A stretch of 62,920 nt of DNA. Origin: a virus (lineage: Duplodnaviria > Caudoviricetes). Below, in pieces: positions 31,661 to 53,400 of this stretch. Position numbers and translations under genes: made by a program. The stretch lies in IMG/VR virus record IMGVR_UViG_3300037808_000193, positions 1-62,920 of that record. The stretch is one strand, 5' to 3'. Every line of letters begins with the position of its first letter. Within the stretch, counting starts at the first letter, position 1. A model generated the notes under the pieces. It was given only the letters and a program-made list of their open reading frames with translations, ran no database searches and was not told where the DNA came from.

Positions 31661-34326
31661 CAGAGCCCCAGAGACCCGAGTGCCCCAGCATCTTGCAGCT
31701 TGAGTAGCACTCCGTTGAATTCACCATTGGCTGCATAATTCTTCCCTCCTGATACAGCTCTACTATCCGTATTGTTTATCAGATCATCAATGGTGTCGAA
31801 AGGTGCGTTGGTGAATATCTCACTAGCCGCCTTGATGCCAATCCCATCAATCGAGGACAGGCCCTTTCGGATTCCCCTCCTCTTCTTGTCGATGGTCCAC
31901 ACGTCACCAGAGATGTTGACATCGGGTGGCAGGATTCTGATCCCCAGCCTCCTCGCCTCCCTGACGTAGAGCTTCTCCTTCGGAGTGCCAGCTGTCGTCT
32001 CCAGCACTGCCGTCATGTACTCCAGCGGGTGGTGGGTCTTGAGGTAGGCAGCCTGGTAGCCCATCAATCCGTAGGCAGTGGCGTGAGCTTCGTTGAACCC
32101 GTAGTCGGCAAACCCTTTCATCTGATCCCAAACCCAATCTGCCTCTCGGCTACTCATGCCAGCAGCAACACAGTGAGCCTTGACAGCGCCACTGAACTCT
32201 CGGAACACACCATGGGACATCGTGAGCTGAGATCCCGACGCCTTCACTGCATCGAGGAACTTGTTCATCAGCTCGTAGCCCATGCCAAGATCCCGCAGGA
32301 TGTCCATGACTTGCTCCTGGTAGAGCACCACGCCCTGAGTCGTCTTCAGCGCCTTCTCGATACAGGGGTGAGGGTAGTCAGGGGGTGGGACACGCTTGAA
32401 TCGACGGTCGATGAACGTGTCGGTCTGGCCAGTCTTCATAGCTGCGGGCCTGAAGAGGGCCATGGCGTCGATGCAATCCTTCACCGTCCTCGGCTTGAGC
32501 TTCTTCGTTCCCCAAGCGTTGGCCTTGCCATCGAACTGGAAGATGCCGTTGTTCGGCTCCACCTTGCGGAGTGCCTTGAACGTCTCCTGGTCCTTGAGTG
32601 GAATCCACCCGAGACCATCGAGTGGGTCACGGTCGATCATCTCCAAGCACCGACGCATGGTGGTGAGTGTCCTCAGCCCGAGGAGGTCGAGCTTCACGAA
32701 GCCCAGCGCCTCCACTTCCTTCATCTCATACTGGGTGACGGTGTTCTTGCTCGATGGGATGAGCATGGTCGGCACGTAGTCAGAGATCGGTAGCCCTGGT
32801 GGCTCGATGATGAACCCGGCAGCGTGCGACCCTGGTGCCTTCGAGATGTCCAGGCCACCCAGACTCCTGATGATCAGCTGCTCGTCTTCCGGCAGATCGG
32901 AGATGGTGTCGACCCATCCGTACTTGGCCTTGAAGTCTTCTGGACCCATGTCCCGACGTTTGCGGGAGATGTACTGCACGAACAGTGACCCCCGGTCATA
33001 GTCATCGACACCCATGGAGTTGTAAGTGCCAATCTGACAGATGGTGTACTTGTCACTCAGGTAGTCAACGATGTCCTGACGGCGAGTGTCCTCTACGTCT
33101 ATGTCGATATCTGGTGGCTTGGTCCTGTCTTCGGTCATGAACCGATCGAACCCGACCTTCCATTCGATGGGGTCGATGTTGGTGATGTCGAGCATGTAGC
33201 AGACGAGTGACCCGTTGGCCGATCCTCGAATGTTGAGGAGGATGCCCTGCTTCCTGGCCCAGCGGCACACCTTGGCCACGAAGAGCAGGTAGTCAGCAAA
33301 CCCCGTCTTCTCGAACACCTCGATCTCGTGCTTGAGCCTCTTCATGTACTTCGACGGGATGCTGTCTGGCCACCACTCTGCAGCTGCCTTCCACAACAGG
33401 TTCTCCATCGACCTCTGCGGGTTCTTGGCCACGTGTGGCACTTGGAACCTGTAGTTGTCGATAGCTGGTATGGCCATCTTGTTCAGGTCGATGATGTCTC
33501 TGAAGGACGCCAGAGCTGCGTTGTAGACCCGCTGGGTCGTCCTGGTCTCGGCGTAGTGGTCCTTGATCCACTTCTGCTTGCACAGGTGATAGGCGTCACC
33601 AGGGAAGGCCGCATCGTCGTCTGGGTCCAGGCCATGGATGACCATCCTCTTCATTGCGTCGTGCAACGGGACCTGATCGAGGTGGCAGTAGTGAGAGTCG
33701 TTGGTGATGACCACTGGGATGCCGGTCTTGTTGGCGATCTCCCAAAGTGCCTCGGTGATGCTGACATCATCAGATGAACCATCCGGCTGGATGGTGTTGT
33801 GCATCTGAGTCTCGATGTAGGTGTGAGGGAACCTCTGGGCAAACCACTGGGCGATGCCTATGGCTCTCTGCTCACCATGGTTCAGCAGAGTCTGGATCAG
33901 AATCCCGAAGAAGCAACCTGTGGTGATAAGGACATCAGCACCACAACGCTGGGCAAGAATGTCCAGGTCGTCGAAGTCGATCCTTGGCTTCCGGTGGAAG
34001 GCTGATCTTTGGTGAGAGCGGGACGATAGCTCGACCAATCCCTTGTACCCGTCGAGGTTCAGAGCCAACACACCCATGTGGTAACGCTTGGCGTCCTTGT
34101 CGGCCTTGTCGTGGACGAGGTAGAACTCCTCGCCAGGGAAGGGCGCAAGGTTGTGTTTCTTGCTGGCCTTGTATAGCTCGATCGTTCCCGACATGTTCCC
34201 ATGGTCGGTGAGAGCTATCCCCGGCTGATTGTTACGTGCAGCAGTCTCGACCATCTCAGTCACTGAGCCCATGGCGTCTAGCGATGAGTAGTGGGAGTGT
34301 GCGTGCAGATGAAAGAACGAACCCAT
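31660..34326 (-). CDS. dnaE: Family C DNA polymerase (DnaE alpha; PHP, polymerase and HhH domains, no C-terminal OB)
   Basis: HLHAHSHYS.LD, TDHG, NDSHY, RGSANGS, PDIDID, HAAG, KLDLLGL, YQEQVM, YGFNEAHA. Confidence 0.96.
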   Translation of the reverse strand: MGSFFHLHAHSHYSSLDAMGSVTEMVETAARNNQPGIALTDHGNMSGTIELYKASKKHNLAPFPGEEFYLVHDKADKDAKRYHMGVLALNLDGYKGLVELSSRSHQRSAFHRKPRIDFDDLDILAQRCGADVLITTGCFFGILIQTLLNHGEQRAIGIAQWFAQRFPHTYIETQMHNTIQPDGSSDDVSITEALWEIANKTGIPVVITNDSHYCHLDQVPLHDAMKRMVIHGLDPDDDAAFPGDAYHLCKQKWIKDHYAETRTTQRVYNAALASFRDIIDLNKMAIPAIDNYRFQVPHVAKNPQRSMENLLWKAAAEWWPDSIPSKYMKRLKHEIEVFEKTGFADYLLFVAKVCRWARKQGILLNIRGSANGSLVCYMLDITNIDPIEWKVGFDRFMTEDRTKPPDIDIDVEDTRRQDIVDYLSDKYTICQIGTYNSMGVDDYDRGSLFVQYISRKRRDMGPEDFKAKYGWVDTISDLPEDEQLIIRSLGGLDISKAPGSHAAGFIIEPPGLPISDYVPTMLIPSSKNTVTQYEMKEVEALGFVKLDLLGLRTLTTMRRCLEMIDRDPLDGLGWIPLKDQETFKALRKVEPNNGIFQFDGKANAWGTKKLKPRTVKDCIDAMALFRPAAMKTGQTDTFIDRRFKRVPPPDYPHPCIEKALKTTQGVVLYQEQVMDILRDLGMGYELMNKFLDAVKASGSQLTMSHGVFREFSGAVKAHCVAAGMSSREADWVWDQMKGFADYGFNEAHATAYGLMGYQAAYLKTHHPLEYMTAVLETTAGTPKEKLYVREARRLGIRILPPDVNISGDVWTIDKKRRGIRKGLSSIDGIGIKAASEIFTNAPFDTIDDLINNTDSRAVSGGKNYAANGEFNGVLLKLQDAGALGSLGL

Positions 34327-34369
34327 ACGGACTCACCTCCGTTCTTAGTTTGCCACCTAGAAATGAGTG

Positions 34370-34425
34370 AGGGGTAGGCCCGGTGGGAAGGCCTACCCCT
34401 CTGCCAGGTCGGTGGGTCCCTGACA
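34370..34425 (-). promoter_or_regulatory. Twin hairpins in the dnaE leader
   Basis: TGTCAGG-GACCCACCGA-CCTGGCA then AGGGGTAGGCC-TTCCCACCG-GGCCTACCCCT; both loops contain CCCACCG. Confidence 0.55.
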
Positions 34426-34482
34426 AGAACCACACTACCTGACTATTGGTGAGAACGCAACCCTAGATTAGGATCGCATCTT

Positions 34483-35436
34483 TCAGGTGACGGCATCCTC
34501 GATTGCGTCGATGTAGACCTGACGGTTCTTCGACGACACCTTGAGGCCGATCTCCTTGGCCAAGGTGCGGAGTGCAGTGATCTTCATGTCTGGCAAAGCG
34601 TCGAGGTCAACGGTGATGGACTCTTCGTCATCATCAAGGTCTTCATCATCGTCATCGTCCAGATCGAAGTCATCGTCGTCATCATCGTCTTCGTCATCAT
34701 CGAGGTCTTCGAGGTCGTCGTCATCTTCCTCGTCTTCCTCTTCATCTTCATCTTCATCACGACTTGCCCGGCGAGATCCCTTCCTCGTGGTGGGCTTGGC
34801 TCGTCCCGACTTGTCCTTCGGCTTACGACGTGGCTCCTCTTCTTCCTCGTCATCGTCATCCACATCGTCAATGTCATCGTCGTCGAAGTCGTCCTCTCCC
34901 GAGACCGCCTTCTCCCACTCCTCGTACATGCCGATGAGGAATTCCTCAGTGTCGACGACCTTGTACTTCTTGAGGTTGATCTTCGACTCGTCCATGGGAT
35001 CGAACCGATATCGGGTGTCGGTTCCCTTGCCCCGACGAGTCAGCTCGAAGTCACGGTCCATGATGGTCCCACGCTTCTCGCAACGAGCAAGCAGATCATC
35101 TGCCAGTGACGACGGCAGCTTCATCGGGTAGACCTTCCCCTCCTCAATATCGAGGACACAGGTCATCACCCGCTTTGAAGGACCGAAACGTCCACCGGAT
35201 GCTTCTCCGTCATCACCCTCTACAAGGGGACGGAACATCCTGACCTCTTCATCGAAGACCTCTCGGTAGCCAGTCCAACCATCGGGCTCGGTGAGGAATC
35301 GCACCATCACGTCTTCATCTTCCCCGATGAACTTGACGAAGTGCTCTCCACCTCCCTGCTTCAACCTCTTCTTGGCTTCTTGGATGGAGCCGAATTTGCC
35401 CCCTCCTTGAAGCTTGACCTTCTTCTTCGTTGCCAT
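34483..35436 (-). CDS. gp32-like ssDNA-binding protein with long acidic tract and C-terminal Rho-N/HEH-like domain
   Basis: VRFLTEP...DRDFELTRRGKGTDTRY; D/E tract; LPDMKITALRTLAKEIGL; start refined to MATKKK. Confidence 0.8.
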   Translation of the reverse strand: MATKKKVKLQGGGKFGSIQEAKKRLKQGGGEHFVKFIGEDEDVMVRFLTEPDGWTGYREVFDEEVRMFRPLVEGDDGEASGGRFGPSKRVMTCVLDIEEGKVYPMKLPSSLADDLLARCEKRGTIMDRDFELTRRGKGTDTRYRFDPMDESKINLKKYKVVDTEEFLIGMYEEWEKAVSGEDDFDDDDIDDVDDDDEEEEEPRRKPKDKSGRAKPTTRKGSRRASRDEDEDEEEDEEDDDDLEDLDDDEDDDDDDDFDLDDDDDEDLDDDEESITVDLDALPDMKITALRTLAKEIGLKVSSKNRQVYIDAIEDAVT

Positions 35437-35618
35437 GTTGCTCCCTTGAGCTGATCTTGACACCGCCAGTGACTCACGTACTGACTGGTGATAACCATAT
35501 CACAGAGGTGTGATTCGGTGTTCCATGACCCTACTGACGGGGTGGGACATTACGTTTCACCTGCATCCGAAGGACATATATAGGAGTAACGGTGGTTGCT
35601 GCTCCTGAGTCCAGGCGA

Positions 35619-35658
35619 GAAGAAACCCCGACCCAGTACGTCGGGCCGGGGCTGCTTC
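35619..35658 (-). terminator. Terminator ending the early operon
   Basis: GAAGCAGCCCCGGCCC...GGGTCGGGGTTTCTTC. Confidence 0.7.
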
Positions 35659-35723
35659 CCTAGCAACTCGGAGGTGAGTGGCTCCGAACTTGTCTCTCTA
35701 CTTATAGGAAGGATTGCTGTTAC

Positions 35724-36119
35724 TCACGGTCTCCGCAACTTCCTCTGAGCCTTGACGATCTTGTCGATTTGGTCCTCAGCTTCTGGGGTCAACGGCATCA
35801 GGCCGTTAGCTCTCGCTTCCTCGCCTGAACCGAACACCTCGACACCACTCGGCTCTGGGGGTTCGATCCCATATATACGCAGAGCGAGTAACTCGTGGTG
35901 ATGACCTCTGTTGCTGTGACAATCACCCCAACCACGGCACATCTTCTGTGTCTCACCCAATCCTGACCAGTGGCACAGGAACTTGGCTGGTGGTTGATGC
36001 ATCGTCTCCGCATCGAACTCGACGAGCTTGTCGTACTCGTCTGGGTGCCACACAGCTGGTGGAACGTCCTTGCGGTACGGACACGAGGGACATGGAACGT
36101 CCCTGAACTCCTCAATCAT
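35724..36119 (-). CDS. DUF6283-like Cys-rich protein
   Basis: PCPSCPYRKDVP..VW...EYDKL...F.CH...CRGW; start refined after the GAGGTGAG SD. Confidence 0.75.
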   Translation of the reverse strand: MIEEFRDVPCPSCPYRKDVPPAVWHPDEYDKLVEFDAETMHQPPAKFLCHWSGLGETQKMCRGWGDCHSNRGHHHELLALRIYGIEPPEPSGVEVFGSGEEARANGLMPLTPEAEDQIDKIVKAQRKLRRP

Positions 36120-36138
36120 CTGACTCACCTCACTTTCT

Positions 36139-36190
36139 CCTGCCCTGAGAGCAGGTGGAACCCCACCACCGAAGTGATGGGGAACCATCT
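36139..36190 (-). ncRNA. Conserved two-hairpin intercistronic RNA motif, copy 5
   Basis: AGATGGTT-CCCCATCAC-TTCG-GTGGTGGGG-TTCCA-CCTGCTC-TCA-GGGCAGG. Confidence 0.8.
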
Positions 36191-36194
36191 GGCA

Positions 36195-36641
36195 TCAGAG
36201 TGACGATTCCCAAAGGTTGATCTCTTTGACAATCTGCTTGTCGATCCGAATCGCTCGGAACGGCCACTTCTCGGCCCGAGTGCAGACACGAGCTACATGG
36301 TTGCCCTTGCGTATCGTCCACTGCGTCTCGGTGGTCTTGCCTGTGCGATGTCCGCAGGCAAGCACATCCATCTCGTTGTGATTTGGTGCCTTCGACGCTG
36401 GCTGATCCAGAGCAACGATCACCGTCCAGTGTTTGCATCGGGTACAGAACCCGAGCCACATCCAGTCAATGCCTTTGCCCTTCTGATCGCCGTCGTAGAT
36501 CATCACGTAGGAGTCGGAGGAATCCAACACCTGACGGATGGTCGTCGGTGACGGGCCAATGCCGAACTCCCCAGGGGTTCCGCCCTGGGTGATCAGGATT
36601 CCGTGCATGAGGTCCATTGCTTGCTCGGTATCAGTCATCAC
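36195..36641 (-). CDS. Hypothetical protein with CxxC...CGH
   Basis: FCTRCKH...LACGH. Confidence 0.6.
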   Translation of the reverse strand: MMTDTEQAMDLMHGILITQGGTPGEFGIGPSPTTIRQVLDSSDSYVMIYDGDQKGKGIDWMWLGFCTRCKHWTVIVALDQPASKAPNHNEMDVLACGHRTGKTTETQWTIRKGNHVARVCTRAEKWPFRAIRIDKQIVKEINLWESSL

Positions 36642-37027
36642 TTCACCGTCACTCTCAGGTAGGGCCTCTTGGGCGTTTCGGTTGTTGCTGATTCGATCAA
36701 CTTCTCGTCGATCTCTCCCAGCGCCACCGCTGCTTCGAGGAGCTTGGGGTCGATCACCTTCTTGGTGACCTTCTCCACTACATCCTCTGGCAGATTGTCC
36801 AGAAGCTCTACCGGGTCGATGTTGCGAGTGACTCCTGCCACGAGGGCAATTTGGACATCACCACGTGAGGTCCCCCGAATGAGGTCCCTCTCCATGTCAC
36901 CTTTGACCATCGTTTCGATGATCTGCTCTTGGAAGGATCGGTACTCCGCCTCGGACTCCTCCTTGGACTCCTTGGCATCGAGCATGTTCTCGACCCAACT
37001 CAGCTTGATCTTGGCTGGTTTCGCCAT
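36638..37027 (-). CDS. Conserved hypothetical protein
   Basis: Coiled coil then KVTKKVIDPKLLEAAV..GEI...PYLRVT; start refined to MAKPAK. Confidence 0.7.
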   Translation of the reverse strand: MAKPAKIKLSWVENMLDAKESKEESEAEYRSFQEQIIETMVKGDMERDLIRGTSRGDVQIALVAGVTRNIDPVELLDNLPEDVVEKVTKKVIDPKLLEAAVALGEIDEKLIESATTETPKRPYLRVTVK

Positions 37028-37050
37028 GATCTTCTCACCTCCGTTTGTTT

Positions 37051-37101
37051 CCTGCCGGATGACAGGTGGAAGGGCACCTCCGAAGAGATGCCCAACCATC
37101 T
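37051..37101 (-). ncRNA. Conserved two-hairpin intercistronic RNA motif, copy 4
   Basis: AGATGGTT-GGGCATCTC-TTCG-GAGGTGCCC-TTCCA-CCTGTC-ATCC-GGCAGG. Confidence 0.8.
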
Positions 37102-37103
37102 AC

Positions 37104-37229
37104 CTACCGACTGCCTGACCAGTAGCTCCTAAGCAGCTCGAACTGTCCGTTGGACATCATCGCCACGATCAGAATCACGATCACGACGATGGCTGTCCAT
37201 GTCAGGTTCCTGAACGTTGTCTCAGTCAC
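37104..37229 (-). CDS. Small membrane peptide (41 aa, not in ORF track)
   Basis: MTETTFRNLTWTAIVVIVILIVAMMSNGQFELLRSYWSGSR. Confidence 0.55.
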   Translation of the reverse strand: MTETTFRNLTWTAIVVIVILIVAMMSNGQFELLRSYWSGSR

Positions 37230-37689
37230 GTCGTGCCGAGCTTTGTGTCGGGATGTTCACCTTGACCTTGCCACCACGCCTCGGAGCAGATGGCCTGCCT
37301 GCCGCCAGGAGGGCGTCGACATCCAACTCGTCCAGAGTCTCGATGGTTTCGGTGACCATGGTGATGTAGTCATCAGCATCCTCTTCGGATACGTCAGACG
37401 TGTCGATGCCTGCGTACTTCTGCAGCATCGCCTTGGTCATCAGGTTAAGCACCCCGAGTGTGTTCGGGTCCCAGTCGAGGAACAGTCCGTTCCGCTTGGG
37501 AAGCCACTCTCCCTTACGAGCTGACCAGTACCACTCCCGAAGGTTGACGTGATGCGTGACGGTCGGGCCGTCATACTTCGTCATCTCCACGAGAGTCGCC
37601 ACCAGCTTGCTCTTGTCTTCTACCAGGACGTGCTCGAAGAGCGTCTCAATGTCCTTGTAGTCAGGCTTGGGTGTCGCTTGCTTTGCCAT
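37222..37689 (-). CDS. PC4/YdbC-like single-stranded nucleic-acid-binding protein
   Basis: VNLREWYW....GEWLPKRNGL.L resembles the PC4 signature; start refined to MAKQAT. Confidence 0.6.
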   Translation of the reverse strand: MAKQATPKPDYKDIETLFEHVLVEDKSKLVATLVEMTKYDGPTVTHHVNLREWYWSARKGEWLPKRNGLFLDWDPNTLGVLNLMTKAMLQKYAGIDTSDVSEEDADDYITMVTETIETLDELDVDALLAAGRPSAPRRGGKVKVNIPTQSSARRD

Positions 37690-37709
37690 TGTTCTCACCT
37701 CACTGTTGT

Positions 37710-37765
37710 CCTGCTGAGTAGCAGGTGGAAGCTCACCCCCATGGTTAGGGGATGAGCAACCATCT
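37710..37765 (-). ncRNA. Conserved two-hairpin intercistronic RNA motif, copy 3
   Basis: AGATGGTT-GCTCATCCCC-TAACCAT-GGGGGTGAGC-TTCCA-CCTGCT-ACTC-AGCAGG. Confidence 0.8.
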
Positions 37766-37766
37766 A

Positions 37767-37862
37767 TCACTCAGCCTTGGTGATCTGATCCAACGCAACC
37801 TCGGCAATACGAAGCTTCGCCTTCAGGATCTCGATCTCACGCCGTAGCTGTTTCTTGGTCAC
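37767..37862 (-). CDS. Small coiled-coil peptide (31 aa, not in ORF track)
   Basis: GTGA-coupled; MTKKQLRREIEILKAKLRIAEVALDQITKAE. Confidence 0.45.
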   Translation of the reverse strand: MTKKQLRREIEILKAKLRIAEVALDQITKAE

Positions 37863-38308
37863 TTGCCACCACGAGTCTGAACCTTGACCTTGCCGGTGGC
37901 CTTGGCTACCGGCTTCTTCTTGGCCGTGGCTTTCTTCGTGGTAGGTGCTGTCTTCTTGGCTGCCGCAGCTTTGGGTGTTGCCTTGGTCGGAACCTTGGCC
38001 TTGCCCTTGGGCCGTTCCTGCTTCTTGGCAGAATCGGCCTTGGCTTTGGACTCCCTCCGAGCTTTGCGTGCCGATCGTTCGGCAAACGCTTCCTCAGAGT
38101 TGAGTTCCTTCACCCGTTCCTCGGTGCCTTCGCCTCCGACAAGACCAACTCCAGGGATCTCCATGATCCCGTCTGAATTGATCGTCTCGAAGATCACCAT
38201 GGCCAGAGCGTCGAGAACTTCCTCGACATGCTTCTTGGCGTCCGATGTGCGACACCTCGTCTTCACTGCGTCATAGACAACCGATCCTACGATCTCTTGA
38301 CCTGACAT
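37859..38308 (-). CDS. HU-like N-terminus with Lys/Ala-rich histone-H1-like tail
   Basis: KKHVEEVLDALAMVIFETI..DG.MEIPGVG resembles HU/IHF helices; KA-rich tail; start refined. Confidence 0.55.
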   Translation of the reverse strand: MSGQEIVGSVVYDAVKTRCRTSDAKKHVEEVLDALAMVIFETINSDGIMEIPGVGLVGGEGTEERVKELNSEEAFAERSARKARRESKAKADSAKKQERPKGKAKVPTKATPKAAAAKKTAPTTKKATAKKKPVAKATGKVKVQTRGGK

Positions 38309-38329
38309 GTGATTCTCACCTCCGTTATT

Positions 38330-38380
38330 GGTGCCGGTTAGCACCATGGGATGCACCCTCCCCGAAGAGAGGATGCACCC
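38330..38380 (-). ncRNA. Conserved two-hairpin intercistronic RNA motif, copy 2 (variant)
   Basis: GGGTGCATCCTCTC-TTCG-GGGAGGGTGCATCC-CAT-GGTGCT-AACC-GGCACC. Confidence 0.7.
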
Positions 38381-38386
38381 GAGTTG

Positions 38387-40327
38387 TTAACCGGCCGTTG
38401 CGACGACGCTCCGCATTGCTCGAACAACCATGGCCTTGGTCATGGTCACAACGTCGTCGAAACTCTCGACGTTGCTAGCCACACTGCAGCCATGATCACC
38501 ATGAGACACAGCTCCGTTGATCCCGTACAGGGCAGTAGTCACGCCCGCACGGTTCATCGACTGGATCACTTCATCTCCTCGATTGCTGGCCCAGTGACCA
38601 TCGGTCACCGTGACCATCATCCGAATCGAATCTGAATCCCTCGACAGGAGCCAGTGTGCTGATTTGCTCAAGCAATCGCCTGGGTCAGTGCCTCCCCTCA
38701 TCTTGAAGGAGAGCATCTCACCAGACTTTGCTTTGTCACCCACGTCATAGACGATGAATGACTCGGTGTTGTAGGCGTACACCACACAGTCTCCGCCAAC
38801 CTGGTCGACGGAACGCTTCAGCAGCCAAGCAGCCCGAGCTACTTCACTCGACATCCCGGCCATCGACCCTGAGATATCCAGGGCAACCGCCATGTTGATA
38901 CGAGTTGCGTAGTCATTGTCTTGGAACGAGTCGAACGGTTCCCGAAGGAAGCGTTCGCCAGCTTCAGCTTGCATGATGCGTGAGATGTTGGGCCGACCGA
39001 GACGGTCAGGTTCCCAAGCACCCTCAGCCTGAACACGAAGGTCCCCGAAGACACGAACGATCTTCTTGGAAGCCATACGGTCATCGCCAGTAGCACTCAC
39101 TGGGGAGCCGTCGATCCTTTCGGTATCAACGCCCTTGCCCTGTGACATCACCTGTCGAATCGACTCAAAGATCTCATCGAGATGCTCACTGGCGACTTCA
39201 CTGTCCTGTGCCTCTGATTGAGCCTGGAAGAGTTCCGAGGTGATCTCGTCACTCGTCCAGTCGTTGACATCAGGACTATCACTCCCTGCCGACTCCCCAC
39301 CTGGGGTGTCGCTGGAAGATTCGTCTGTGTTATCCGAACCATGGTCATCACTGGCAGCCTCACCAGAGGTTTCCCCCTGGCCATCCTGCCCGACATCCCC
39401 ATCGTTGCTGTCCACTTGCTCTTGCTCTTCGTCGTTGTCGCCGTCCATGTCGTCATAGTCGACATCGTGGGACTCGATGTGTTGTGCGTCGGCATCTTGA
39501 CTATCTGCCTTCGCACCATCTCGACGCTGACGCCCCGTCTTCTCTGAATCGTCAGGACCACCCCTCTCGGGACGATCCGGCCAGTGACCAACTCCTGATG
39601 CTTGATCACCGTTCGCCATCCTCTCGGAGCCCGAAGGCATACCCGATTCGTTGGATGGCTTGGTGATGATCGTGTGGATACGATCCACAATCACTCTCAC
39701 ATCCGACTCGGAAGACGGAGTGAGTATCAGTCGTTGGTACTGCCTGACCAGAGATTCGATCTCGTCAGCGTGCCCACTTGGCTCGAACATGGCCTTCGCA
39801 CCGTCCCTCAGAGACTGAGGAAGGTAGTGACGGCCACACACGAGAAGCCACAGCCCGTCGTCCACGTTCTGGAGTCCGCCCCTGAGGTTAACCAGGAGGT
39901 CTGTCACCAGATTGGTAAAGAGGTCTTCAGCCACTTCGTAACGACTGACGAACAAACGCTCGATGCGTTGGTCCTCCAGAACGTTGAAGATGAACATCTT
40001 CAGCGTGTCGCCGAAGAAGCTGCCAGCCACCTTGTACCAAAGGTCAAAGGGTGTGTAGAGCACGTGTGCCACTTCGTGGTAGTTCACACCGATCAGGTTC
40101 CGAAGAAGTGATCGGGTGAGATCCGGTGGTGTCCCATCTGCTCGTCGCCCGTACTTGGTTACGTTGAAGGTGATAACACCACCATCGGTCCATGCAGGAG
40201 CATTCGCAAGATGAGCACTGTGTGGATGACCACGAGTGACTCTCAGCTTGGTATGTCCGGTGATGATCTGATCCGTCTTCTGAAGGACCCTCATCGCCGC
40301 ATCAAGCTTACGCTCAATACTTATCAT
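38387..40327 (-). CDS. vWA (MIDAS) protein with N-terminal HExxH zincin-like domain (CobT-like MoxR partner)
   Basis: AWTDG, YHEVAHV, FNVLEDQRIE, acidic linker, LDISGSM, GGT, VTDG. Confidence 0.88.
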   Translation of the reverse strand: MISIERKLDAAMRVLQKTDQIITGHTKLRVTRGHPHSAHLANAPAWTDGGVITFNVTKYGRRADGTPPDLTRSLLRNLIGVNYHEVAHVLYTPFDLWYKVAGSFFGDTLKMFIFNVLEDQRIERLFVSRYEVAEDLFTNLVTDLLVNLRGGLQNVDDGLWLLVCGRHYLPQSLRDGAKAMFEPSGHADEIESLVRQYQRLILTPSSESDVRVIVDRIHTIITKPSNESGMPSGSERMANGDQASGVGHWPDRPERGGPDDSEKTGRQRRDGAKADSQDADAQHIESHDVDYDDMDGDNDEEQEQVDSNDGDVGQDGQGETSGEAASDDHGSDNTDESSSDTPGGESAGSDSPDVNDWTSDEITSELFQAQSEAQDSEVASEHLDEIFESIRQVMSQGKGVDTERIDGSPVSATGDDRMASKKIVRVFGDLRVQAEGAWEPDRLGRPNISRIMQAEAGERFLREPFDSFQDNDYATRINMAVALDISGSMAGMSSEVARAAWLLKRSVDQVGGDCVVYAYNTESFIVYDVGDKAKSGEMLSFKMRGGTDPGDCLSKSAHWLLSRDSDSIRMMVTVTDGHWASNRGDEVIQSMNRAGVTTALYGINGAVSHGDHGCSVASNVESFDDVVTMTKAMVVRAMRSVVATAG

Positions 40328-40357
40328 GTTCTCACCTCTTGTTAGTTGCTAAACCAC

Positions 40358-40413
40358 CCTGCCTGAGAAGCAGGAGGAAGGGCACCCCTTCGCAGAGGGA
40401 TGCCCAACCTTCT
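40358..40413 (-). ncRNA. Conserved two-hairpin intercistronic RNA motif, copy 1
   Basis: AGAAGGTT-GGGCATCCCT-CTGCGA-AGGGGTGCCC-TTCCT-CCTGCT-TCTCA-GGCAGG. Confidence 0.8.
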
Positions 40414-40418
40414 ATCTC

Positions 40419-41303
40419 TCAGTCTTCGTACTCGACTCCGTACTCCCTTTCCAGGTCCGCACGGTTCAGGTCGAACACGTTCTTGACTGCCATCTTCTCG
40501 TCTGCAGAGAACGCATTGACGAAGTTGTCGATCGCACCGTCGAAGCTCACGGCTTGAGCAAGTTGCTCAAACTCCATGAGCTGATTCGTGGCCACGGGAG
40601 TTTCGATGTTCCCCTCGTTGTGCTGAGCCCTGATCTGTCGGGCAATTCGCAGCAACGTATTGGAGAACACCAGCTGCTCCTCGGTCACGTCGTCGTAGTC
40701 GAACGACATCTTCACGGCGAACCGATTCTTGAATGCGTAGTTCAGGGGCCTCGTACCCTCGTAGTCGGGGTTGTAATCGCCGATCACCAGCAGCTTGCTG
40801 TTGGCAATGATGATTTCACCACCGTTCTCCACGAGAGAGATGGTCCGACGTTTGTCAGTCAAGCCGAACATGGTCGCAGCCACCTTGGCAGGGAGGAAGT
40901 TCACCTCGTTGAGGAGGAGAACGCCACCGTGCCTCGCCAGCTTGGTCACAGGTCCGTCTTGCCAGACGTAGCCAGCACCAGTCTTCTTTGGTGCGTAGGT
41001 CCCGAACAGCATCGCCGGATCGGCAGCACCGTTGCATGGAACGCTGTAGACGGGGAAGTTGTTGCGTGCTGCGTAGGCGTATACCGCACTGGTCTTGCCA
41101 GTGCCGGTTGGGCCGTCGATCAACACGCTGTACCCGAGCCGATGGGCTTCGCCGAGGAACTCGAACTCACTCACACCAGATGACACTTCCCGACTGATGT
41201 AGTCGGTGTCGTACCAGCTGGGGGGAATGAGGTCCGCAACCTCTTTGTTCCAGGCCGGGGCCTTCTTCTTCGTCGCAGTCTTGGTTGTTGTAGCAGTAGC
41301 CAT
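40419..41303 (-). CDS. MoxR-family AAA+ ATPase (CbbQ/NirQ/CobS-like)
   Basis: GPTGTGKT, WQDGPVT, LLLNEVN, NPDYEGTRPLNYAFKNRF. Confidence 0.92.
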   Translation of the reverse strand: MATATTTKTATKKKAPAWNKEVADLIPPSWYDTDYISREVSSGVSEFEFLGEAHRLGYSVLIDGPTGTGKTSAVYAYAARNNFPVYSVPCNGAADPAMLFGTYAPKKTGAGYVWQDGPVTKLARHGGVLLLNEVNFLPAKVAATMFGLTDKRRTISLVENGGEIIIANSKLLVIGDYNPDYEGTRPLNYAFKNRFAVKMSFDYDDVTEEQLVFSNTLLRIARQIRAQHNEGNIETPVATNQLMEFEQLAQAVSFDGAIDNFVNAFSADEKMAVKNVFDLNRADLEREYGVEYED

Positions 41304-41433
41304 TTCTGTTCACCTCACGTTGAGTTGCGTAAGGAGGACAAGATGTAGCTAAACACCTCGCCCTCCACAGAAGACACCGAGCAAATTACAAGTTGCTAAG
41401 TGGTCATTAGATCAGTCGCAGCTGACTTTACAG

Positions 41434-41772
41434 TCAGGGTGTGACATCCATCATCGGTGGCCAGGATGCTTGTGAGGGTGTAGGGGCGTCTTCCGCCCCG
41501 GTGAGATCAGCTTCTGACCAGCATTCCCGGTATGCACACTGTGCAGCCCAGGTGATTGCCTTGTAGTAAGCCTTCGCCCAGTCACCCTCGTCATCCCACT
41601 TGAACGTCTTGATGATTGATGGTCGCCGACGGTTTCCCTGTCGGTCATGAGAGGGACCGTGACCAAACACGGTCACTTTGGAGGCTTCCGCATCGGGATC
41701 TTGCAATACCCGATAGGTGCATCCCATCCCTTCGATGGTTGCCATCGTCATCTCTTCGATCGTAAGCGTCAT
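41434..41772 (-). CDS. Hypothetical protein, first ORF of the early operon
   Basis: GGAG SD before MTLTIEEM; the longer track start runs into structured non-coding sequence. Confidence 0.55.
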   Translation of the reverse strand: MTLTIEEMTMATIEGMGCTYRVLQDPDAEASKVTVFGHGPSHDRQGNRRRPSIIKTFKWDDEGDWAKAYYKAITWAAQCAYRECWSEADLTGAEDAPTPSQASWPPMMDVTP

Positions 41773-41779
41773 GGTTACT

Positions 41780-42630
41780 CCGTTCCGCCCGATGTCCTCT
41801 GTGGAGGTGAGGTGAGAATTCTGTTCTGATCGGCATCGCCCGTCACATTGGGCTCGGACCGTATGGATTGCTAGGCACTTCAACAGCTTGGGAACCGCAT
41901 CTCCTGGTCTTCATCTACCTCCAAGAGCCCTTCCACAAACCTCTGTAATCCACAGACGACCATTCGCCACTTCAGAATACTGACTTTATGTCATCCTCTC
42001 ACTAGGTGAGATTCTGACCTCTCAGGCTGCACGTGCGTTCCTAGCTCATGCATCGCCCGAACGGTTACCTATCACTTTCACGGTGGGATACTTGCTCCCA
42101 TCGACAATTACTCGTGATCCCTTGCCATTGTCAGCGTGTCCGAAGGCTTGCTCTATCGCCTGCCGGTTGCTTCTCTGTTGATTGTCAAGATGCGTCTTAG
42201 TCAAGTCTGACCGACACCATCGAAGTAGCTAGGCTCCCGCCCCTCATAAGTGGGCTTTGCAAGATCACGAGACCGGACTACCAAGGGTCGATTCCGTAGG
42301 GTTCTAACCCCTACCTACCCTGCCGAATTACAGAATTCAGAACACTTGCCACTAGGGCCAACAGAGGTTTGATCCTCCGCCATGTTGTTCTCACGGCTTG
42401 TCACTCAGTCGTTCTCACTCTTGCCATGGCACGCATAGTCCAACGATCGGACCGTTCCTAGTTGTCCTAGCCCCGTAGCCGATTGATACGGGGCTAAGTC
42501 CCTGGTCATGCCTAGCGTTCGATTGTCAAGGTGCTAGATCCCTATTGGAACCCATTGGGAGCTGTCACCCAGACTCCCAGTCTGAGCCATCACTCCCGGC
42601 CCGAGTAGACCGAATCACCGACCTACTCAC
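41780..42630 (-). ncRNA. Candidate large structured RNA / leader (~850 nt)
   Basis: No credible ORF; many hairpins, most with G-U pairs favouring the minus strand; long-range helices; two boxA-like boxes; TGTGATAGTGT -10-like element just upstream. Confidence 0.6.
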
Positions 42631-42659
42631 CTAGGACACTATCACAGCTAGTGAGGTTG

Positions 42660-43060
42660 TAACAGGGACCCTAGGGGTCCCCTGTCGGCACCCTGGCACC
42701 CTGGCAGTAGGCCTAGGGTCACCACTAGCACAGAATCGATTCTAAGGCCTCTCAGAGCCGTTCTAAGGCCCTACTAGGATTCTGTGCTATGGGTATAGCC
42801 AAACACCCTGGCAAGCTCTTAGAGAGCCTCTCAGGCACCTCTCCTGGCAAGTGAGGTTTCTAGCACCTAGGCCACATTGACCAGCCCGACCCCTCACTGA
42901 GATCATATGAAAGGTCATGAGATAACCAAAGATTCCATTCTCACCTGTATCATGACTTTCCAGGTATTTCATGCAATTCTAGGGAGGATGTGATTCTGGC
43001 AGAAATTCAGCGACACTCAGCATTTCTGTTTTGGGCTTCTGAGGCAGAAATTCTCTCGTC
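42660..43060. repeat. Cluster of palindromes and short repeats (candidate origin or packaging/control site)
   Basis: ACAGGGACCC-TAG-GGGTCCCCTGT; GGCACCCT tandem; 12-bp inverted repeat 42726-42737/42778-42789 enclosing TTCTAAGGCC x2; GGCAGAAATTC x2. Confidence 0.5.
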
Positions 43061-43161
43061 GCTCAGTACTGGTGATCTCAGCTCGAAATGTGAGAAAGTT
43101 ACCTACCGCATCTTCAGATGATAGAGTGACAATTGCACCACCAGTAACTAGGAGAGAACTG

Positions 43162-43632
43162 ATGGCGGAAGAAGCAGTTGAGACAGTCAAGCTGGACCCT
43201 CTCACAGGGACCACCATTGGCACCCAGTCATGGGTCATCGCTACTGAGATGGCAGCTGGTGGAGAGGGCAAAGGGGAGGTGATCGACCGCATCAAGGCCA
43301 GAGTCCCCGAGACCACACGCTCAGGGACCCCCAACCCGATAGCTCAGAGAGTCAACACAGTGCTCACGCAGCTTCGCCAGAAGGGCTGGACCGTCGAGGA
43401 GTCATGGAAGCTCGTCCCTCCAGCAGAGGGAGAGGCACCCAAGCCCAAGGCACCAGCCAAGAAGCCTGCCAAGAAGGCGGCCTCCAAGACCAAGAAGGCT
43501 CCTGCCAAGAAGACAGCAGCAAAGCCCAAGGTCACTGAGAGGGCAGCGGTGACCAAGGAGGGCAAGGTCGTACCAACCAAGCCCAAGGTGACCGGGAAGC
43601 GTAAGATCGTGAAGAAGAAGGTGACTGCCTGA
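43162..43632 (+). CDS. Lys/Ala/Pro-rich DNA-binding-like protein
   Basis: AGGAG SD; helical N-terminal domain plus KKPAKK tail; the only sizeable plus-strand gene. Confidence 0.75.
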   Translation: MAEEAVETVKLDPLTGTTIGTQSWVIATEMAAGGEGKGEVIDRIKARVPETTRSGTPNPIAQRVNTVLTQLRQKGWTVEESWKLVPPAEGEAPKPKAPAKKPAKKAASKTKKAPAKKTAAKPKVTERAAVTKEGKVVPTKPKVTGKRKIVKKKVTA

Positions 43633-43658
43633 CCCGCCCTTGGGCAATCACTTTCTAG

Positions 43659-43688
43659 GAGGCCGGGGTGTGGAAGCCCCGGCCTTCT
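43659..43688. terminator. Hairpin terminator between convergent genes
   Basis: GAGGCCGGGG-TGTGGAAG-CCCCGGCCTT. Confidence 0.7.
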
Positions 43689-44552
43689 TCATGTGTATCG
43701 GTCCGCAAGAGCACGAAGCTTCTTGGGCTTCATCTCCCCAGGGTCCTTGGCTTTGACCCCATCCTTGCGTCGACCGAACATCTTCCCGTCTACCCGACGT
43801 AGGTTCAGAACGAACTGCTCGTGCTTCAGCCTGTCGTAGATAGCCGCCTCAGCCTCTTGCCCAGCTCTGTCGTTGTCGAGCATGAGGATGATGTCCGTAG
43901 CACCCATCCTCCGCAGCTCACCGACCTGATAGTCACTGATCCTCGAACCCAGGATGGCTACAGCACTCATGCCGAACTGGTCGAGCTTGATTGCGTCGAG
44001 TGACCCCTCACAGATGAAGATCGGCATGTCATACGACCTCCAAGCCCCGAACAGGATCTCGCTGATCTTCGAGCCCTTGGGGTACTTGTACCGGACCCTC
44101 ACGTCATGGTCGAGATACCGACGGATGATTCCCCTCAGCCTTCCCATGTGGTTCCTGTACGGGATGGTTACCGCATTCCTCATGGGGTCGTAGCCGAGAT
44201 CCCACTTCTCCACGATGTTGTTGTCGAACCCACGCTCTCCCCAGTAGGGATGCATCACGCTCTGGCGGTACTTCCTCAGCACGTGCTCAGGTAGAGCTTC
44301 TTCAGGCTCCAGAGACAACCGTTCAAGGATGCTCTTGCCCGACAACATCGAGGTTGCCTCTGGAGCCACACCTATAACGCCACCAAGGTGACCGCCCTTG
44401 CCACAAGCGTGGCAGTAGTACAGCCCCTTCTCGACGTTCACCCTCATAGAGGGATTCGTGTCCTCATGGAAGATGCAGAGGCAATCCCACTCATCACCAG
44501 ACTTAGATCTGATGTCGAGATTACTCTCCGCCCACTGCTCATATTCTCTCAT
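43689..44552 (-). CDS. dnaG: DnaG-like primase (CHC2 zinc finger and TOPRIM)
   Basis: LCIFHEDTNPS...YCHAC; ICEGSLDA; LDNDRAG; KDPGE. Confidence 0.9.
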   Translation of the reverse strand: MREYEQWAESNLDIRSKSGDEWDCLCIFHEDTNPSMRVNVEKGLYYCHACGKGGHLGGVIGVAPEATSMLSGKSILERLSLEPEEALPEHVLRKYRQSVMHPYWGERGFDNNIVEKWDLGYDPMRNAVTIPYRNHMGRLRGIIRRYLDHDVRVRYKYPKGSKISEILFGAWRSYDMPIFICEGSLDAIKLDQFGMSAVAILGSRISDYQVGELRRMGATDIILMLDNDRAGQEAEAAIYDRLKHEQFVLNLRRVDGKMFGRRKDGVKAKDPGEMKPKKLRALADRYT

Positions 44553-50465: not shown

Positions 50466-53400
50466 TCAAATTTCGTGAGTGATTTCTTGAGAAGCTGTGA
50501 TCTGTTCACCGCTTGTGTCTTCCGCTACTACCTCATGTTCGTAGCTCACAAGAACATCAATCTCTGACTGGTCGAGGGAGACAACTTCTGTTCCCGCTTC
50601 AATTTCGATTCGGTGTTGGAAGTACCTACTTGCCCGGTACAGGAACTCAGTGACGACAGTGCTGAGTGTTCCGGCAAACGTGACAGCGCCAGTGAAGGCC
50701 CTATGCAATGTTGAAGCGTTGGATTCAGTTCCCGATGGTGACAAGGTTCCATCGAGTGATGCACTGACCTTCTTTGTTACCTGGCCAGTACTACTGGTCG
50801 TGCCGGTAGTTGTCTTGCGGGCCTTCTTGACAAGAGCACCAGCCCAAGTCATTGCTCCAGCCATGGCTCGACGGAAGGTACCGGAGGTGGAAACAGCTCC
50901 AGAACTGCTGAGAGAGCCTGAGAGCGGGTGTGAGGTCTTCCTGCTCAAGGTGCTGCTGGAGGACACAGAACCAGTCACCGCTCGTCCTGTGAGATTCTGA
51001 AGCACTCCTGACGGGGTGATGGCACCTACCAGGGACAGGAGCTTCAGCTTGATCGTGCTGATCGTGGCCTCAGGGGTGATGGTCCCCTCAGTCGAGATCT
51101 GGGCTTCCTTCGTGATCCCGCCACTAGAGGCCAAAGACCCAACCTTCGAGGTGAACACCTTCACCTTGAGAAGACCGGCCATGGTGACCGTGCCCACGAC
51201 AGCCAAGAACTCTGCCGAGAGGGTCGCGAGGGTTCCTGCAAAGGTCACCACTCCCGACAGGGTGGTGGAGACACCCTTGATCAGAGTGTTGGTCGGGGTG
51301 ATCGTTCCATCGACCACCTTCCCCACCTTCCTGCTCAGGGTGGCCGAGGAGGAGACAGATCCTGAAGAGGAAATGCCTGGCTTCTTGAGCATGGAGCCCG
51401 CACTGGAAATAGCTCCCAGCACTGAGGTCGAGACACCCTTGGTGATAGCCCCTGCCGAGGTCACAGCTCCGGTCAGAGCAAGGACAGCAGAGCGGACAGA
51501 AGACTGGACACCCGACGGGACAAGACTGCCCCCAAGTAGCACCTTTGCCCTGTTCAGGAGGGTGCCAGCACTGGACATTCCACCGGACATCGAAGTGGAC
51601 GTTCCACGGGCCAAAGTGGCATCAGGAGTGACTGTTCCAGCGACCACCTTCTGGGCCTGATTGGTAAGCACTCCTGAACTACTGGCTGATCCAGTGAGGG
51701 AACGCTGAACCTTCATCACCAAAGAACCAGCAAGACTCATGGTTCCGGCTATTGCCTGCTGGACCAACCCAGCGATGTAGTTGGTGGCCAGGGTGGCGGC
51801 AGAGGTGACTGCTCCCGCCAGTTTCTTCCCTGCCTTGTTGAGCAAGGTTCCCGAGAGAGGACCAATCACCACGATGTCGTCGTAGTAGGTGTCCATCGGG
51901 TTGAGGCTGTCGTCGTAGTCCTCACCAGGACGGAGCGATACACGGATGTTGTCGTAATCGGCAGTAGCTGTACCTGTGATGGTGTGCTTGGTCCAGTCGG
52001 ACTCGATGGTCAGCTCGTTGGTGCCGATGTAGGCGATCCACTCTGAAGCAGTCCACCCATCGTCGTATGCCTGCAGACCCATCCAGCCCTCGGAGTTGGT
52101 GACTCGACCAACAGGCGACCCCGTGTGCTTGACCCAGAACTCCAGAGTGAAGGTGGCCCCTGACTTGATGGGTGAGTGACCGATCCCGGTGGTGGTTGCA
52201 ATGTAGTGGTCTGCAGTAGTCCCGTCTTCGAGGTAGTGGAAGCTCAGGGTGCCGCTGTGGGCCTCAGAACTGGACTCTTCCCACGTGTCGGCACCGATCG
52301 GGTTGTACCAGCCACCGATGTCGTTGGCACCACCCGTGTCATCGGCATTGATGGTGTGTTGATCCCCGAGCTGACCTACCAGCGACTTCTGGGCCTGCTT
52401 GACCAAGGCCCCAGCACTGCTCACAGTTCCTGTGAGGGCACGAGAGATCTGACGCACCAGAGTGCCAGCAGATGTCACGGCACCCGTCAGTGGCTTCTGA
52501 GTCTGCTTCACGAGGGAACCAGCAGATGTCACAGAGCCCGTCAGAGAGCGCACGAAGGCCGAGACAGTGCCCAACACCCCTGAAGAGGTCAGAGAGCCGC
52601 TCAGCGTGGTCTGGGTCTCCTTGACGAGAGTGGAGCCGAAGGTCATGCCGCCTGACAAGGACAGCATCTTCAGGAAACTGGTTGCCAGAGCACCAGCGGA
52701 CGACATGGCTCCGGTGAACGCAAGCTGAGCCTGCTTGACCAGGACACCGGCCGATGTCACTGCACCAGCCAGCACCTTGGAGGGCTTGCGTGCCAGAGTG
52801 CCTGCCGATGAGATTGAGCCCGTGAGTGGCTTCTGAGGTTCCTTGGTGAGCTGACCCACACTGTCGATGTCCCGCATCTGAGCCAGCGTCAGGGCCTGAT
52901 CAGTAATCATCAGGAAGTCGAAGTCGACCTGACTACTGACGACCCCGAGGTCGGGAGAGAACCACGGGTCAGTACCAGCGAGGTGGAAGCCGGTGCCGAG
53001 GGTGTAAGTGTCGTCAACCTCAAACTCACCATCGAGGTACAACGAGCCGGTGCCATCGCTGCGGACAACCCACCCGATGGTGTGCCACTCGTCATCGCTG
53101 ACGTGACCCATCGGCCCGCCGTAGATGGACTGGTTGGCTCCACCCGAACTGTCAATCCTGAGGTACAGCCGGGAATTGGTGCCGTCCTGTGAGATCACCA
53201 ATCCACTCGTGCCGTAGTTCATCCATGAGAACCAAGTCCTGTAGCTGGCGTCGACTTGGTTGCTCTTGAAGCGGAACATGATGGTGGTGTCACCACCCGA
53301 GGCAAAGCCTGCTGGCATGTCGAGCTGGAGCTGTTCGGTCACTGCCTCGGTGTCTCGGAAGCCACGACCAGAGAGGCCGTCGACGAAGGTGGAGATCGTC

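Follow-up and report, generated by a model that had tools for sequence, protein, structure and literature searches.

What kind of signal is the hairpin-forming repeat that stands between successive genes of a minus-strand operon in the IMG/VR virus record IMGVR_UViG_3300037808_000193? The whole record was analysed (the window, 62,920 bases; all coordinates follow whole-window numbering), and a preliminary description made from its letters had read the repeat, between positions 36139 and 40413, as five copies of a two-hairpin RNA motif in front of ribosome binding sites. That observation proved real in part, and the interpretation attached to it is supported in part. The element is real and wider than first described: four of the copies are members of a family of cis-acting RNA structures, intercistronic in position and hitherto undescribed, that occurs in several unrelated tailed phages and prophages, 'undescribed' being a judgement suggested by the literature and Rfam searches reported below. 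The family is new within a kind already known, that of hairpins repeated between cistrons of phage operons, and its design around two folds is unusual. Intergenic repeats of actinobacteriophages (SAS/ESAS and others) have been catalogued for more than ten years without a mechanism; what sets the present element apart is that it covaries clearly, can adopt two mutually exclusive folds and is held in constant register with both stop codon and ribosome binding site. These properties permit concrete hypotheses that are testable with ordinary tools.

Three covariance models carry the delimitation of the family. R1 was seeded with the window copies c1, c3, c4 and c5, R2 with c1 and c5 only, and R3 was built exclusively from 31 elements of two other carriers, a 95-kb provirus of 70% G+C (G002) and an 11-kb contig of a further phage (L365), and holds no window sequence. 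R1 gives 65–71 bits to c1, c3, c4 and c5, its own seeds, with the next match at 13.9 bits. R2 matches c4, c3 and the copy of another phage contig, G001, all of them non-seed sequences, at 51–58 bits; run with filters off over 34 kb of G002 and L365, it returned 31 elements at E≤0.03, all 31 on the plus strand. R3, applied to the window with filters off at E≤1, matched exactly c1, c3, c4 and c5 (31–52 bits) and nothing else, a test that is not fully independent because the 31 training sequences had been gathered with a window-seeded model. The sites in the window and the signals next to them are as follows.

40358–40414, with its 5' flank to 40422, minus strand: copy c1 (R1 67.2, R2 81 as a seed, R3 42.2 bits), made up of the 5' flank strand P0 (overlapping the stop codon at 40419–40421), the box GAAGG, the UU/UU loop, a 10-bp upper stem, CCU and hairpin 2
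37710–37766, with its flank to 37775, minus strand: copy c3 (R2 52.8 as a non-seed, R3 31.2 bits), directly 3' of the stop codon (37767–37769) of a small open reading frame (ORF)
37051–37102, to the stop codon at 37106, minus strand: copy c4 (R2 58.2 as a non-seed, R3 42.4 bits), separated by 1 nt from the stop codon TAG at 37104–37106
36139–36191, to the stop codon at 36197, minus strand: copy c5 (R2 72.5 as a seed, R3 52.1 bits), separated by 3 nt from the stop codon TGA at 36195–36197
38330–38380, minus strand: site c2, a 14-bp followed by a 7-bp hairpin (minimum free energy −39 kcal/mol, z −5.6), family-like in architecture only
41333–41366, minus strand: hairpin of 14 bp, three of them G-U, in front of the AAA_5 ATPase gene, not a family member
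36124–36131, minus strand: strong Shine-Dalgarno (SD) sequence GAGGTGAG of the gene after c5
37034–37041, 37694–37701, 38315–38322 and 40331–40338, minus strand: equivalent SD sites

All five sites of the preliminary description lie within 1 nt of where it had placed them, on the minus strand, and the family as defined by R2 and R3 takes in c1, c3, c4 and c5 and leaves out c2. There are four members rather than five because the models miss c2 (unmatched by R1 at E≤10 and by R3 at E≤1), and what had been called a variant copy has no more in common with the others than a long hairpin ahead of a short one. The 14-bp hairpin at 41333–41366 is present as described and folds with z −3.6 on the sense strand versus −0.8 on the antisense strand; neither R1 nor R3 matches it. 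The position of each site 0–9 nt after a stop codon and ahead of an A-rich linker, GAGGTGAG and ATG can be read directly from the sequence, as can the UUCG loops in three sites (c2, c4 and c5) and the UU/UU internal loop in four (c1, c3, c4 and c5). The SD sequence GAGGTGAG occurs 16 times in the window versus 5.9 ± 2.6 expected, and five of the 16 follow the five sites. The pattern CATC..GGTGNNNTTCC has five matches in the window versus 0.35 expected, four of them being c1, c3, c4 and c5; the fifth (35295–35329) lies inside an ORF and is matched by no model. At the level of RNA the corresponding CAUC/GGUG core with its U-G wobble was correctly seen at all five sites, and it does not define the family: outside the window only some members carry it, while others have CACC/GGUG or unrelated sequence.

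The carriers outside the window were reached by pattern scans of increasing tolerance. A strict window-type pattern found a single stretch among viral contigs, in G001, a 49-kb phage contig of 65% G+C in which one copy, also the only element found there by R3, lies between a stop codon and an SD sequence on the coding strand; a looser pattern gave 27 stretches, of which only the one in G001 is real. Relaxing the 2x2 loop in the pattern led to G002, where R3 finds 37 elements, all on the plus strand, within a 21-kb block (43.6–64.6 kb) and none in the other 74 kb. Further patterns led to five near-identical contigs (97–99% identity) of another phage (L276, L365, L382/L383, L385 and L387), with at least 12 elements in L365. 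By BLAST these three lineages have essentially no proteins in common with the window: G001 shares none with it by tblastn or blastp, and G002 has one weak match with the window and one with G001. All three of the predicted G002 proteins downstream of elements that were compared are identical to public proteins named for a Micromonospora species, and for this reason the host of G002 is taken to be an actinobacterium. Judged by the source names of these identical proteins, at least one carrier is a prophage in an actinobacterial genome, and at least one host of the carriers an actinobacterium.

Beyond these lineages the scans returned little. The next best locus of the viral contigs, L024 at 24 bits, was rejected because it reads as a gene start in antisense. 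Genome contigs contained 88 matches to the pattern, the best of the 80 loci scanned (L114, 35.5 bits) being without a hairpin; metagenome contigs contained four, the twin of G001 being the one real case. For the box pattern, a sample of 401 Actinomycetes genomes gave chance-like counts and no array like the 37 elements of G002 (highest 4+3 and 1+5), and R3 found no match in four actinobacterial genomes among 150 scored candidates of more than 12,000 per genome. The AAA_5 ATPase gives a homologue alignment of 47 loci at no more than 45% identity, closest homologues otherwise being at 57–70% identity; 13 of these 47 distant loci (L127–L138 and L140) hold no match to R1 or R3, and a 646-aa window protein has no relative in viral contigs. 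Searching named phages with blastn gave no match to the window, and only matches at E=1 to a 103-nt G002 element. Rfam 15 has no match at the gathering threshold in the whole window, and at E≤10 (35800–41700) or E≤1 (L365, L184 and L003) there are only weak unrelated matches and no cis-regulatory family over an element, which agrees with the earlier statement that this is not a known family. The literature searched holds no description of the element that we could find, and a large catalogue of candidate phage RNAs may already include the motif (PMC10690425).

Comparison of the lineages shows what is constant in the element. Common to all of them is a box, 5'-GA(N)GG ... CC(N')CC-3' (N = U, A or C; N' = A, U or G), in which both G-C pairs are almost invariant, while the N-N' pair is UA in 20, CG in 5, AU in 4 and GU in 2 of 31 sequences. 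An A-C mismatch just below the box is retained in 33 of 36 elements, and just above it there is a 2x2 weak spot, which is UU/UU in the window and in G001 and mostly UG/UG or UG/CG elsewhere, so that UU/UU is not the hallmark it had seemed to be. The upper stem above is GC-rich, 8–12 pairs long and free to vary in sequence with its pairing kept: all nine modelled pairs change on both sides, and 8 of 8 positions pair between cognate arms, compared with 4.9 on average between non-cognate ones. Apical loops show no conservation. Beyond the box lies a segment that starts with CC(N)(N)(N) throughout and can form, with no spacer from the box, a local hairpin of 5–7 bp (hairpin 2), which covaries as well (third pair GC in 12, CG in 8, UA in 8 and AU in 3 of the 31 sequences).

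Taken together, 99% of the 515 cells in the alignment of 31 sequences are paired, and 13 of the 17 pairs change on both sides. Compensatory cells number 131 versus 43.6 ± 4.5 in shuffles, none of 500 shuffles reaching the observed value, and in the five window-type sequences all 85 cells are paired. The G-U wobbles, the A-C mismatch and the UG/UG pairs are compatible with the transcript strand only, and the sites of the window fold at −32 to −39 kcal/mol in sense versus −24 to −30 kcal/mol in antisense orientation. The earlier view of a strand-specific, covarying structure at the level of RNA is thereby borne out: the sense strand folds better, and covariation in the homologues is strong. Strain-level covariation is absent from the window itself, where fragments from four DNA sequencing runs are identical, with no variant letters.

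The two-hairpin form on which the preliminary description was based is one of two mutually exclusive predicted folds. In the alternative, the nucleotides of hairpin 2 and its loop pair with the 7–13 nt that follow the upstream stop codon, and this flank pairing is predicted to extend the main hairpin to one irregular duplex of about 19–30 stacked positions. All window copies can form this long fold (3+1+3+2+9–10 stacked positions, with 6–8 further pairs in c1 and c3), and in G002 and L365 it reaches about 26–30 positions. When folded freely, 30 of 36 elements adopt the long hairpin, among them three of the four window copies (c1 and c3 included), and c5 alone in the window takes the two-hairpin form; when the 5' flank is masked, 35 of 36 form hairpin 2. 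The flank pairing covaries too (GUG/CAC, GCG/CGC, ACG/CGU, GAG/CUC), and cognate flanks bind their 3' segment at −11.8 versus −9.6 kcal/mol for non-cognate ones, a value as low as which was reached in none of 2000 permutations; cognate ranks are only moderate because many flanks are alike. In the five window-type sequences either fold is 100% compatible with the data.

Both folds are set between translation signals with little slack. An ORF of at least 40 codons terminates no more than 25 nt upstream of all 36 elements, the stop codon being TGA in 34 of them and lying at a modal gap of 7–8 nt from the model start, which is the flank strand; in 34 of the 36 an SD sequence and a start codon follow within 70 nt, at a modal gap of 17–19 nt. 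These counts come from a simple ORF heuristic, and some short GTG starts and '−4' gaps among them are artefactual. The element therefore spans the interval from one stop codon, or a few nt past it, to about 7–30 nt before the next start codon. In the window copies the SD sequence is mostly unpaired in either predicted fold, and masking of the SD by the element was rejected as an explanation, its predicted accessibility being alike in both states. As a separate observation, two tiny minus-strand ORFs, at 37771–37862 (about 31 codons) and 37104–37229 (about 41 codons), overlap the stop or start codons of their neighbours, and c3 and c4 come after these tiny ORFs, not after the larger genes.

What could a structure of this kind do? 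Our preferred, and still tentative, proposal is that the element is a punctuation mark for processing and stabilising messenger RNA, possibly sensitive to translation, to which we would give a probability of roughly 0.38. On this view a host endonuclease specific for double strands, of the RNase III type, would recognise the long fold and cut the polycistronic transcript at the conserved box. The upper hairpin would then remain on the upstream message as a protective 3' end, while the freed 3' segment would refold, placing hairpin 2 at the extreme 5' end of the downstream message, beside the strong SD sequence, as a 5' stabiliser. 5'-terminal hairpins and strong SD sequences are stabilisers of bacterial mRNAs. 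Conservation of both pairings, and the start of hairpin 2 right at the box, would be accounted for by this course of events. Termination at the adjoining stop codon obliges the ribosome to unpair the flank strand, so the choice between the folds is probably coupled to translation of the upstream gene. A host factor is favoured over a phage factor because the lineages share essentially no proteins, and one that reads duplex geometry together with a small conserved box fits better than a phage protein; RNase III is the best-known factor of that sort.

As predicted, the long fold has the geometry of a T7-type RNase III site, an irregular helix of about two turns (about 20–22 bp), often with an internal loop where the cut falls, and the comparison with T7 drawn in the preliminary description is plausible. 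Early RNA of the Bacillus phage SP82 reportedly contains Bs-RNase III sites and would be a comparable system. In T7 itself, as in the lineages studied here, related irregular hairpins recur between cistrons of a phage operon that the host polymerase transcribes, and internal loops interrupt a duplex of about two helical turns. According to one account, an idealised RNase III substrate measures 22 bp, internal loops or mismatches allow cleavage of a single strand, after which a 3' hairpin persists as a determinant of stability, and the T7 early polycistronic precursor (about 7000 nt) has five processing signals, the outcome being monocistronic messages with a protective 3' hairpin (PMC3867540). 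Unlike the T7 signals, to which it has no sequence or Rfam relation, the element adjoins the stop codon and can form, as an exclusive alternative, a second and local hairpin, its cleavage is only putative, and it occurs in up to 37 copies per operon as opposed to the five signals of the T7 precursor; T7 has an enterobacterial host, whereas the sole identified host of an element carrier, that of G002, is an actinobacterium.

Also comparable are the SAS/ESAS repeats of Cluster K mycobacteriophages, which are repeats of one orientation and unknown function, situated in short gaps between non-structural genes just upstream of starts (PMC3203893, PMC12699233), and the intergenic repeats, likewise of unknown function, recorded for Microbacterium phage clusters EC, EF, EG and EI (PMC7302621). 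One orientation, short gaps and a place just upstream of start codons are features that the element shares with both. It is unlike them in that the window has no blastn match to named phages; the 13-bp SAS consensus printed in PMC3203893 has no window match at up to 2 mismatches. The ESAS inverted repeats, 17 bp long, are conserved, whereas the stems of the element vary and covary, and where the ESAS authors see little support for an mRNA hairpin (PMC3203893), the element shows the opposite, strong covariation.

Several points weigh against processing and stabilisation as the function. The nuclease step is wholly inferred. The stabiliser idea requires a one-strand cut, because cutting of both strands removes the upstream 3' hairpin. 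The long duplex is not universal, given that the flank pairing of the G001 copy is weak (−6.5 kcal/mol) and this copy folds as two hairpins. The 31 sequences were gathered with a window-seeded model and aligned to fit the model structure, so that the covariation counts and the R3 test favour structure, and the covariation cells are not independent events because many elements of one phage are paralogues. Finally, a cassette deletion with its junction in an element, detailed below, shows that the repeats act also at the level of DNA.

A more specific version, which we regard as doubtful, makes the element a ribosome-sensing RNA switch that punctuates phage operons, with termination at the abutting stop codon selecting the fold. 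The long duplex would here be nuclease-sensitive or otherwise inactive and the two-hairpin fold would protect both neighbouring messages, so that translation of its upstream neighbour would set the stability and stoichiometry of each cistron; as unrelated phages share the element, it would be read by a conserved host factor and would have spread with gene cassettes. Such a switch would add a new kind to the cis-regulatory RNAs. Were the element a processing or stability signal, it would show how phages of actinobacteria derive individually tuned messages from long operons in which dozens of small genes are strung together, and would offer a compact portable insulator for operon design in high-GC hosts.

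The main rival, which we hold to be just as doubtful as the switch, is translation coupling without any nuclease: a terminating ribosome would open the flank, hairpin 2 would close, and the stop codon would be brought near the next SD sequence for reinitiation. The adjacency of stop codon and flank strand, the turn to hairpin 2 of 35 of 36 elements on masking of the flank and the tight spacing from hairpin 2 to the start codon would all be expected of such a device. They have to be set against the nearly equal SD accessibility predicted for the two states in the window copies, the very strong SD that each downstream gene already possesses, and the genes of the same operon with overlapping start and stop codons (36638; 37229), which do without an element.

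Less likely again is that the element is in essence a DNA-level repeat that drives the gain, loss and exchange of small cassettes, in the manner of the stem-loops of T4-type phages or integron attC, with the RNA structure as a by-product. One small gene and one element, together about 440 bp, are missing from contig L387 relative to the otherwise 97.6% identical L365, with the deletion junction inside an element. Genes beside elements are small and orphan (none of six sampled has a PHROG family), and the same element stands in phages with unrelated genes; cassette exchange may explain its travel between them. On the other hand, the elements are on one strand only (37 of 37 in G002), their G-U wobbles, A-C mismatch and UG/UG pairs suit the transcript strand alone, their stems covary instead of being conserved, which homologous recombination would not require, their register with stop codon and SD is fixed, and a coding-strand scan of 34–44 kb found no promoter-like site inside the window elements. 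Because the elements keep so strictly to one strand, contain wobble pairs and stay in register with translation signals, we argue that recombination is a consequence and not the selected function; the deletion within an element nevertheless ties RNA punctuation to modular genome evolution. Among chromosomal repeats, REP/BIME are abundant imperfect palindromes of intercistronic or 3' regions that can stabilise upstream mRNA; they belong to the host chromosome, occur in both orientations and are mobilised by dedicated transposases, whereas the element is phage-borne, of one orientation and in register with translation signals. A precedent is PeSL (promoter-early stem-loop) of T4-type phages, which is described as consisting of repeated intergenic stem-loops that flank small variable genes, with indel junctions in the repeats (PMC4122927), as seen for the element in L387 and L365. 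PeSL is there a composite terminator and promoter, while the element has no promoter-like hexamers on the coding strand and no T-run, and its conserved features are those of the RNA strand. Separately, the L365 phage contains a second repeat family of about 60 nt (L365 4402–4462, 5418–5478 and 7506–7564; L276 3972–4260), which coincides with an insertion of about 290 bp in L276 relative to L365.

The preliminary description had proposed an operator for an RNA-binding protein, with two proteins of the same operon as candidates. In its general form, with a phage- or host-encoded protein that represses or activates the downstream genes, we consider this improbable. The conserved features outside Watson-Crick pairing, namely the 2x2 weak spot and the A-C mismatch (33 of 36 elements), look like a recognition surface when taken with the invariant GG/CC, whereas the apical loops are unconserved and 37 sites in one operon would titrate any regulator. 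An operator for the named candidates is unlikely, the element being present in three other lineages with essentially none of the window's proteins; the window, G001 and G002 share no protein beyond the two weak matches. The 'HU-like' protein (37859–38308, minus strand) has an apparent half HU fold followed by a Lys/Ala-rich tail, and the 'PC4-like' protein (37222–37689, minus strand) carries what we take to be a PC4 motif; at the thresholds used neither has a Pfam, PHROG or PDB sequence match, and Pfam and PHROGs thus give no family for either.

Least probable of the rivals discussed so far are intrinsic terminators or attenuators without U-tails, which would either lower transcription step by step down the operon or yield to an antiterminator. 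In favour are the great stability of the hairpins (−33 to −53 kcal/mol) and the terminators without U-tails that are said to have been reported from the early region of the actinophage phiC31. In a scan of 34000–44000, however, c1–c5 and the 41366 hairpin are absent from the 13 terminator-like sites found, and none of the four copies, nor c2 or the 41366 hairpin, has a T-run; true sites of hairpin and T-run lie elsewhere on the same strand, between genes.

35627–35645, minus strand: operon-ending terminator, a canonical hairpin with U-run (terminator scan)
34369–34401, minus strand: GC-rich 13-bp hairpin, its U-run partial, before the Pol III alpha gene, counted as a second operon end (terminator scan)

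The same interval has no sigma-70-like site on the minus strand and two on the plus strand, one promoter type having been scanned. With 37 successive elements on the same strand within 21 kb of G002, each about 17–19 nt from the next start, there is no room for promoters, and by our arithmetic even 10% termination per element would therefore abolish distal expression. That mycobacterial RNA polymerase needs a U-tract, as stated in PMC3993855, also counts against U-less terminators. The absence of a hairpin with a T-run at any site agrees with the preliminary description, and plain terminators are unlikely. As a minor point, the loop of the hairpin at 34369–34401 (minus strand) reads UUCCCACC and resembles the 3' half of the element's box, which may be chance. 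A self-cleaving ribozyme or a CRISPR-repeat mimic was rejected, with no Rfam match and stems that differ between copies, and RNase P or a tRNA-like CCA was dropped; the CCA is paired, since it covaries with UGG (CCU with AGG in c1). The idea of an attC site was considered as well and set aside.

Bases 1–300 of the record recur as a direct repeat at 62304–62603 with 98% identity, from which, as terminal redundancy or circular assembly overlap, a genome of about 62.3 kb follows. All large ORFs of the window are on the minus strand, and G+C is 53–59%. Family searches with 20 window proteins indicate a tailed phage: a portal, a head morphogenesis protein, tail proteins, a DnaB-like helicase, a primase, an SSB-like protein, Pol III alpha and the AAA_5 (CobS/MoxR-like) ATPase were recognised, and no phage RNA polymerase was among the 20 scanned. 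Window DNA is present in sequencing runs labelled seawater metagenome, and no run recorded as RNA contains it.

The element-bearing operon starts past a largely non-coding stretch at about 41.9–43.0 kb. Read on the minus strand, 41884–43016 offers more than 1 kb without a convincing ORF upstream of the operon, with TTGACA-like hexamers and many short hairpins, next to a divergent plus-strand ORF (43072–43632) whose predicted product is Lys/Ala-rich; the stretch is possibly a regulatory region of the phage, and G001 likewise has a long leader after a divergent gene. Downstream of the elements, the SSB-like protein (34483–35463, minus strand; PHROG matches at 2e-10) contains a long acidic Asp/Glu repeat tract, from which the largest direct-repeat families of the window arise. 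Several further direct-repeat families, of 43–54 nt, lie in a 1703-aa ORF (50466–55577, minus strand), which was not among the family-scanned proteins and by its size may be a tape measure protein.

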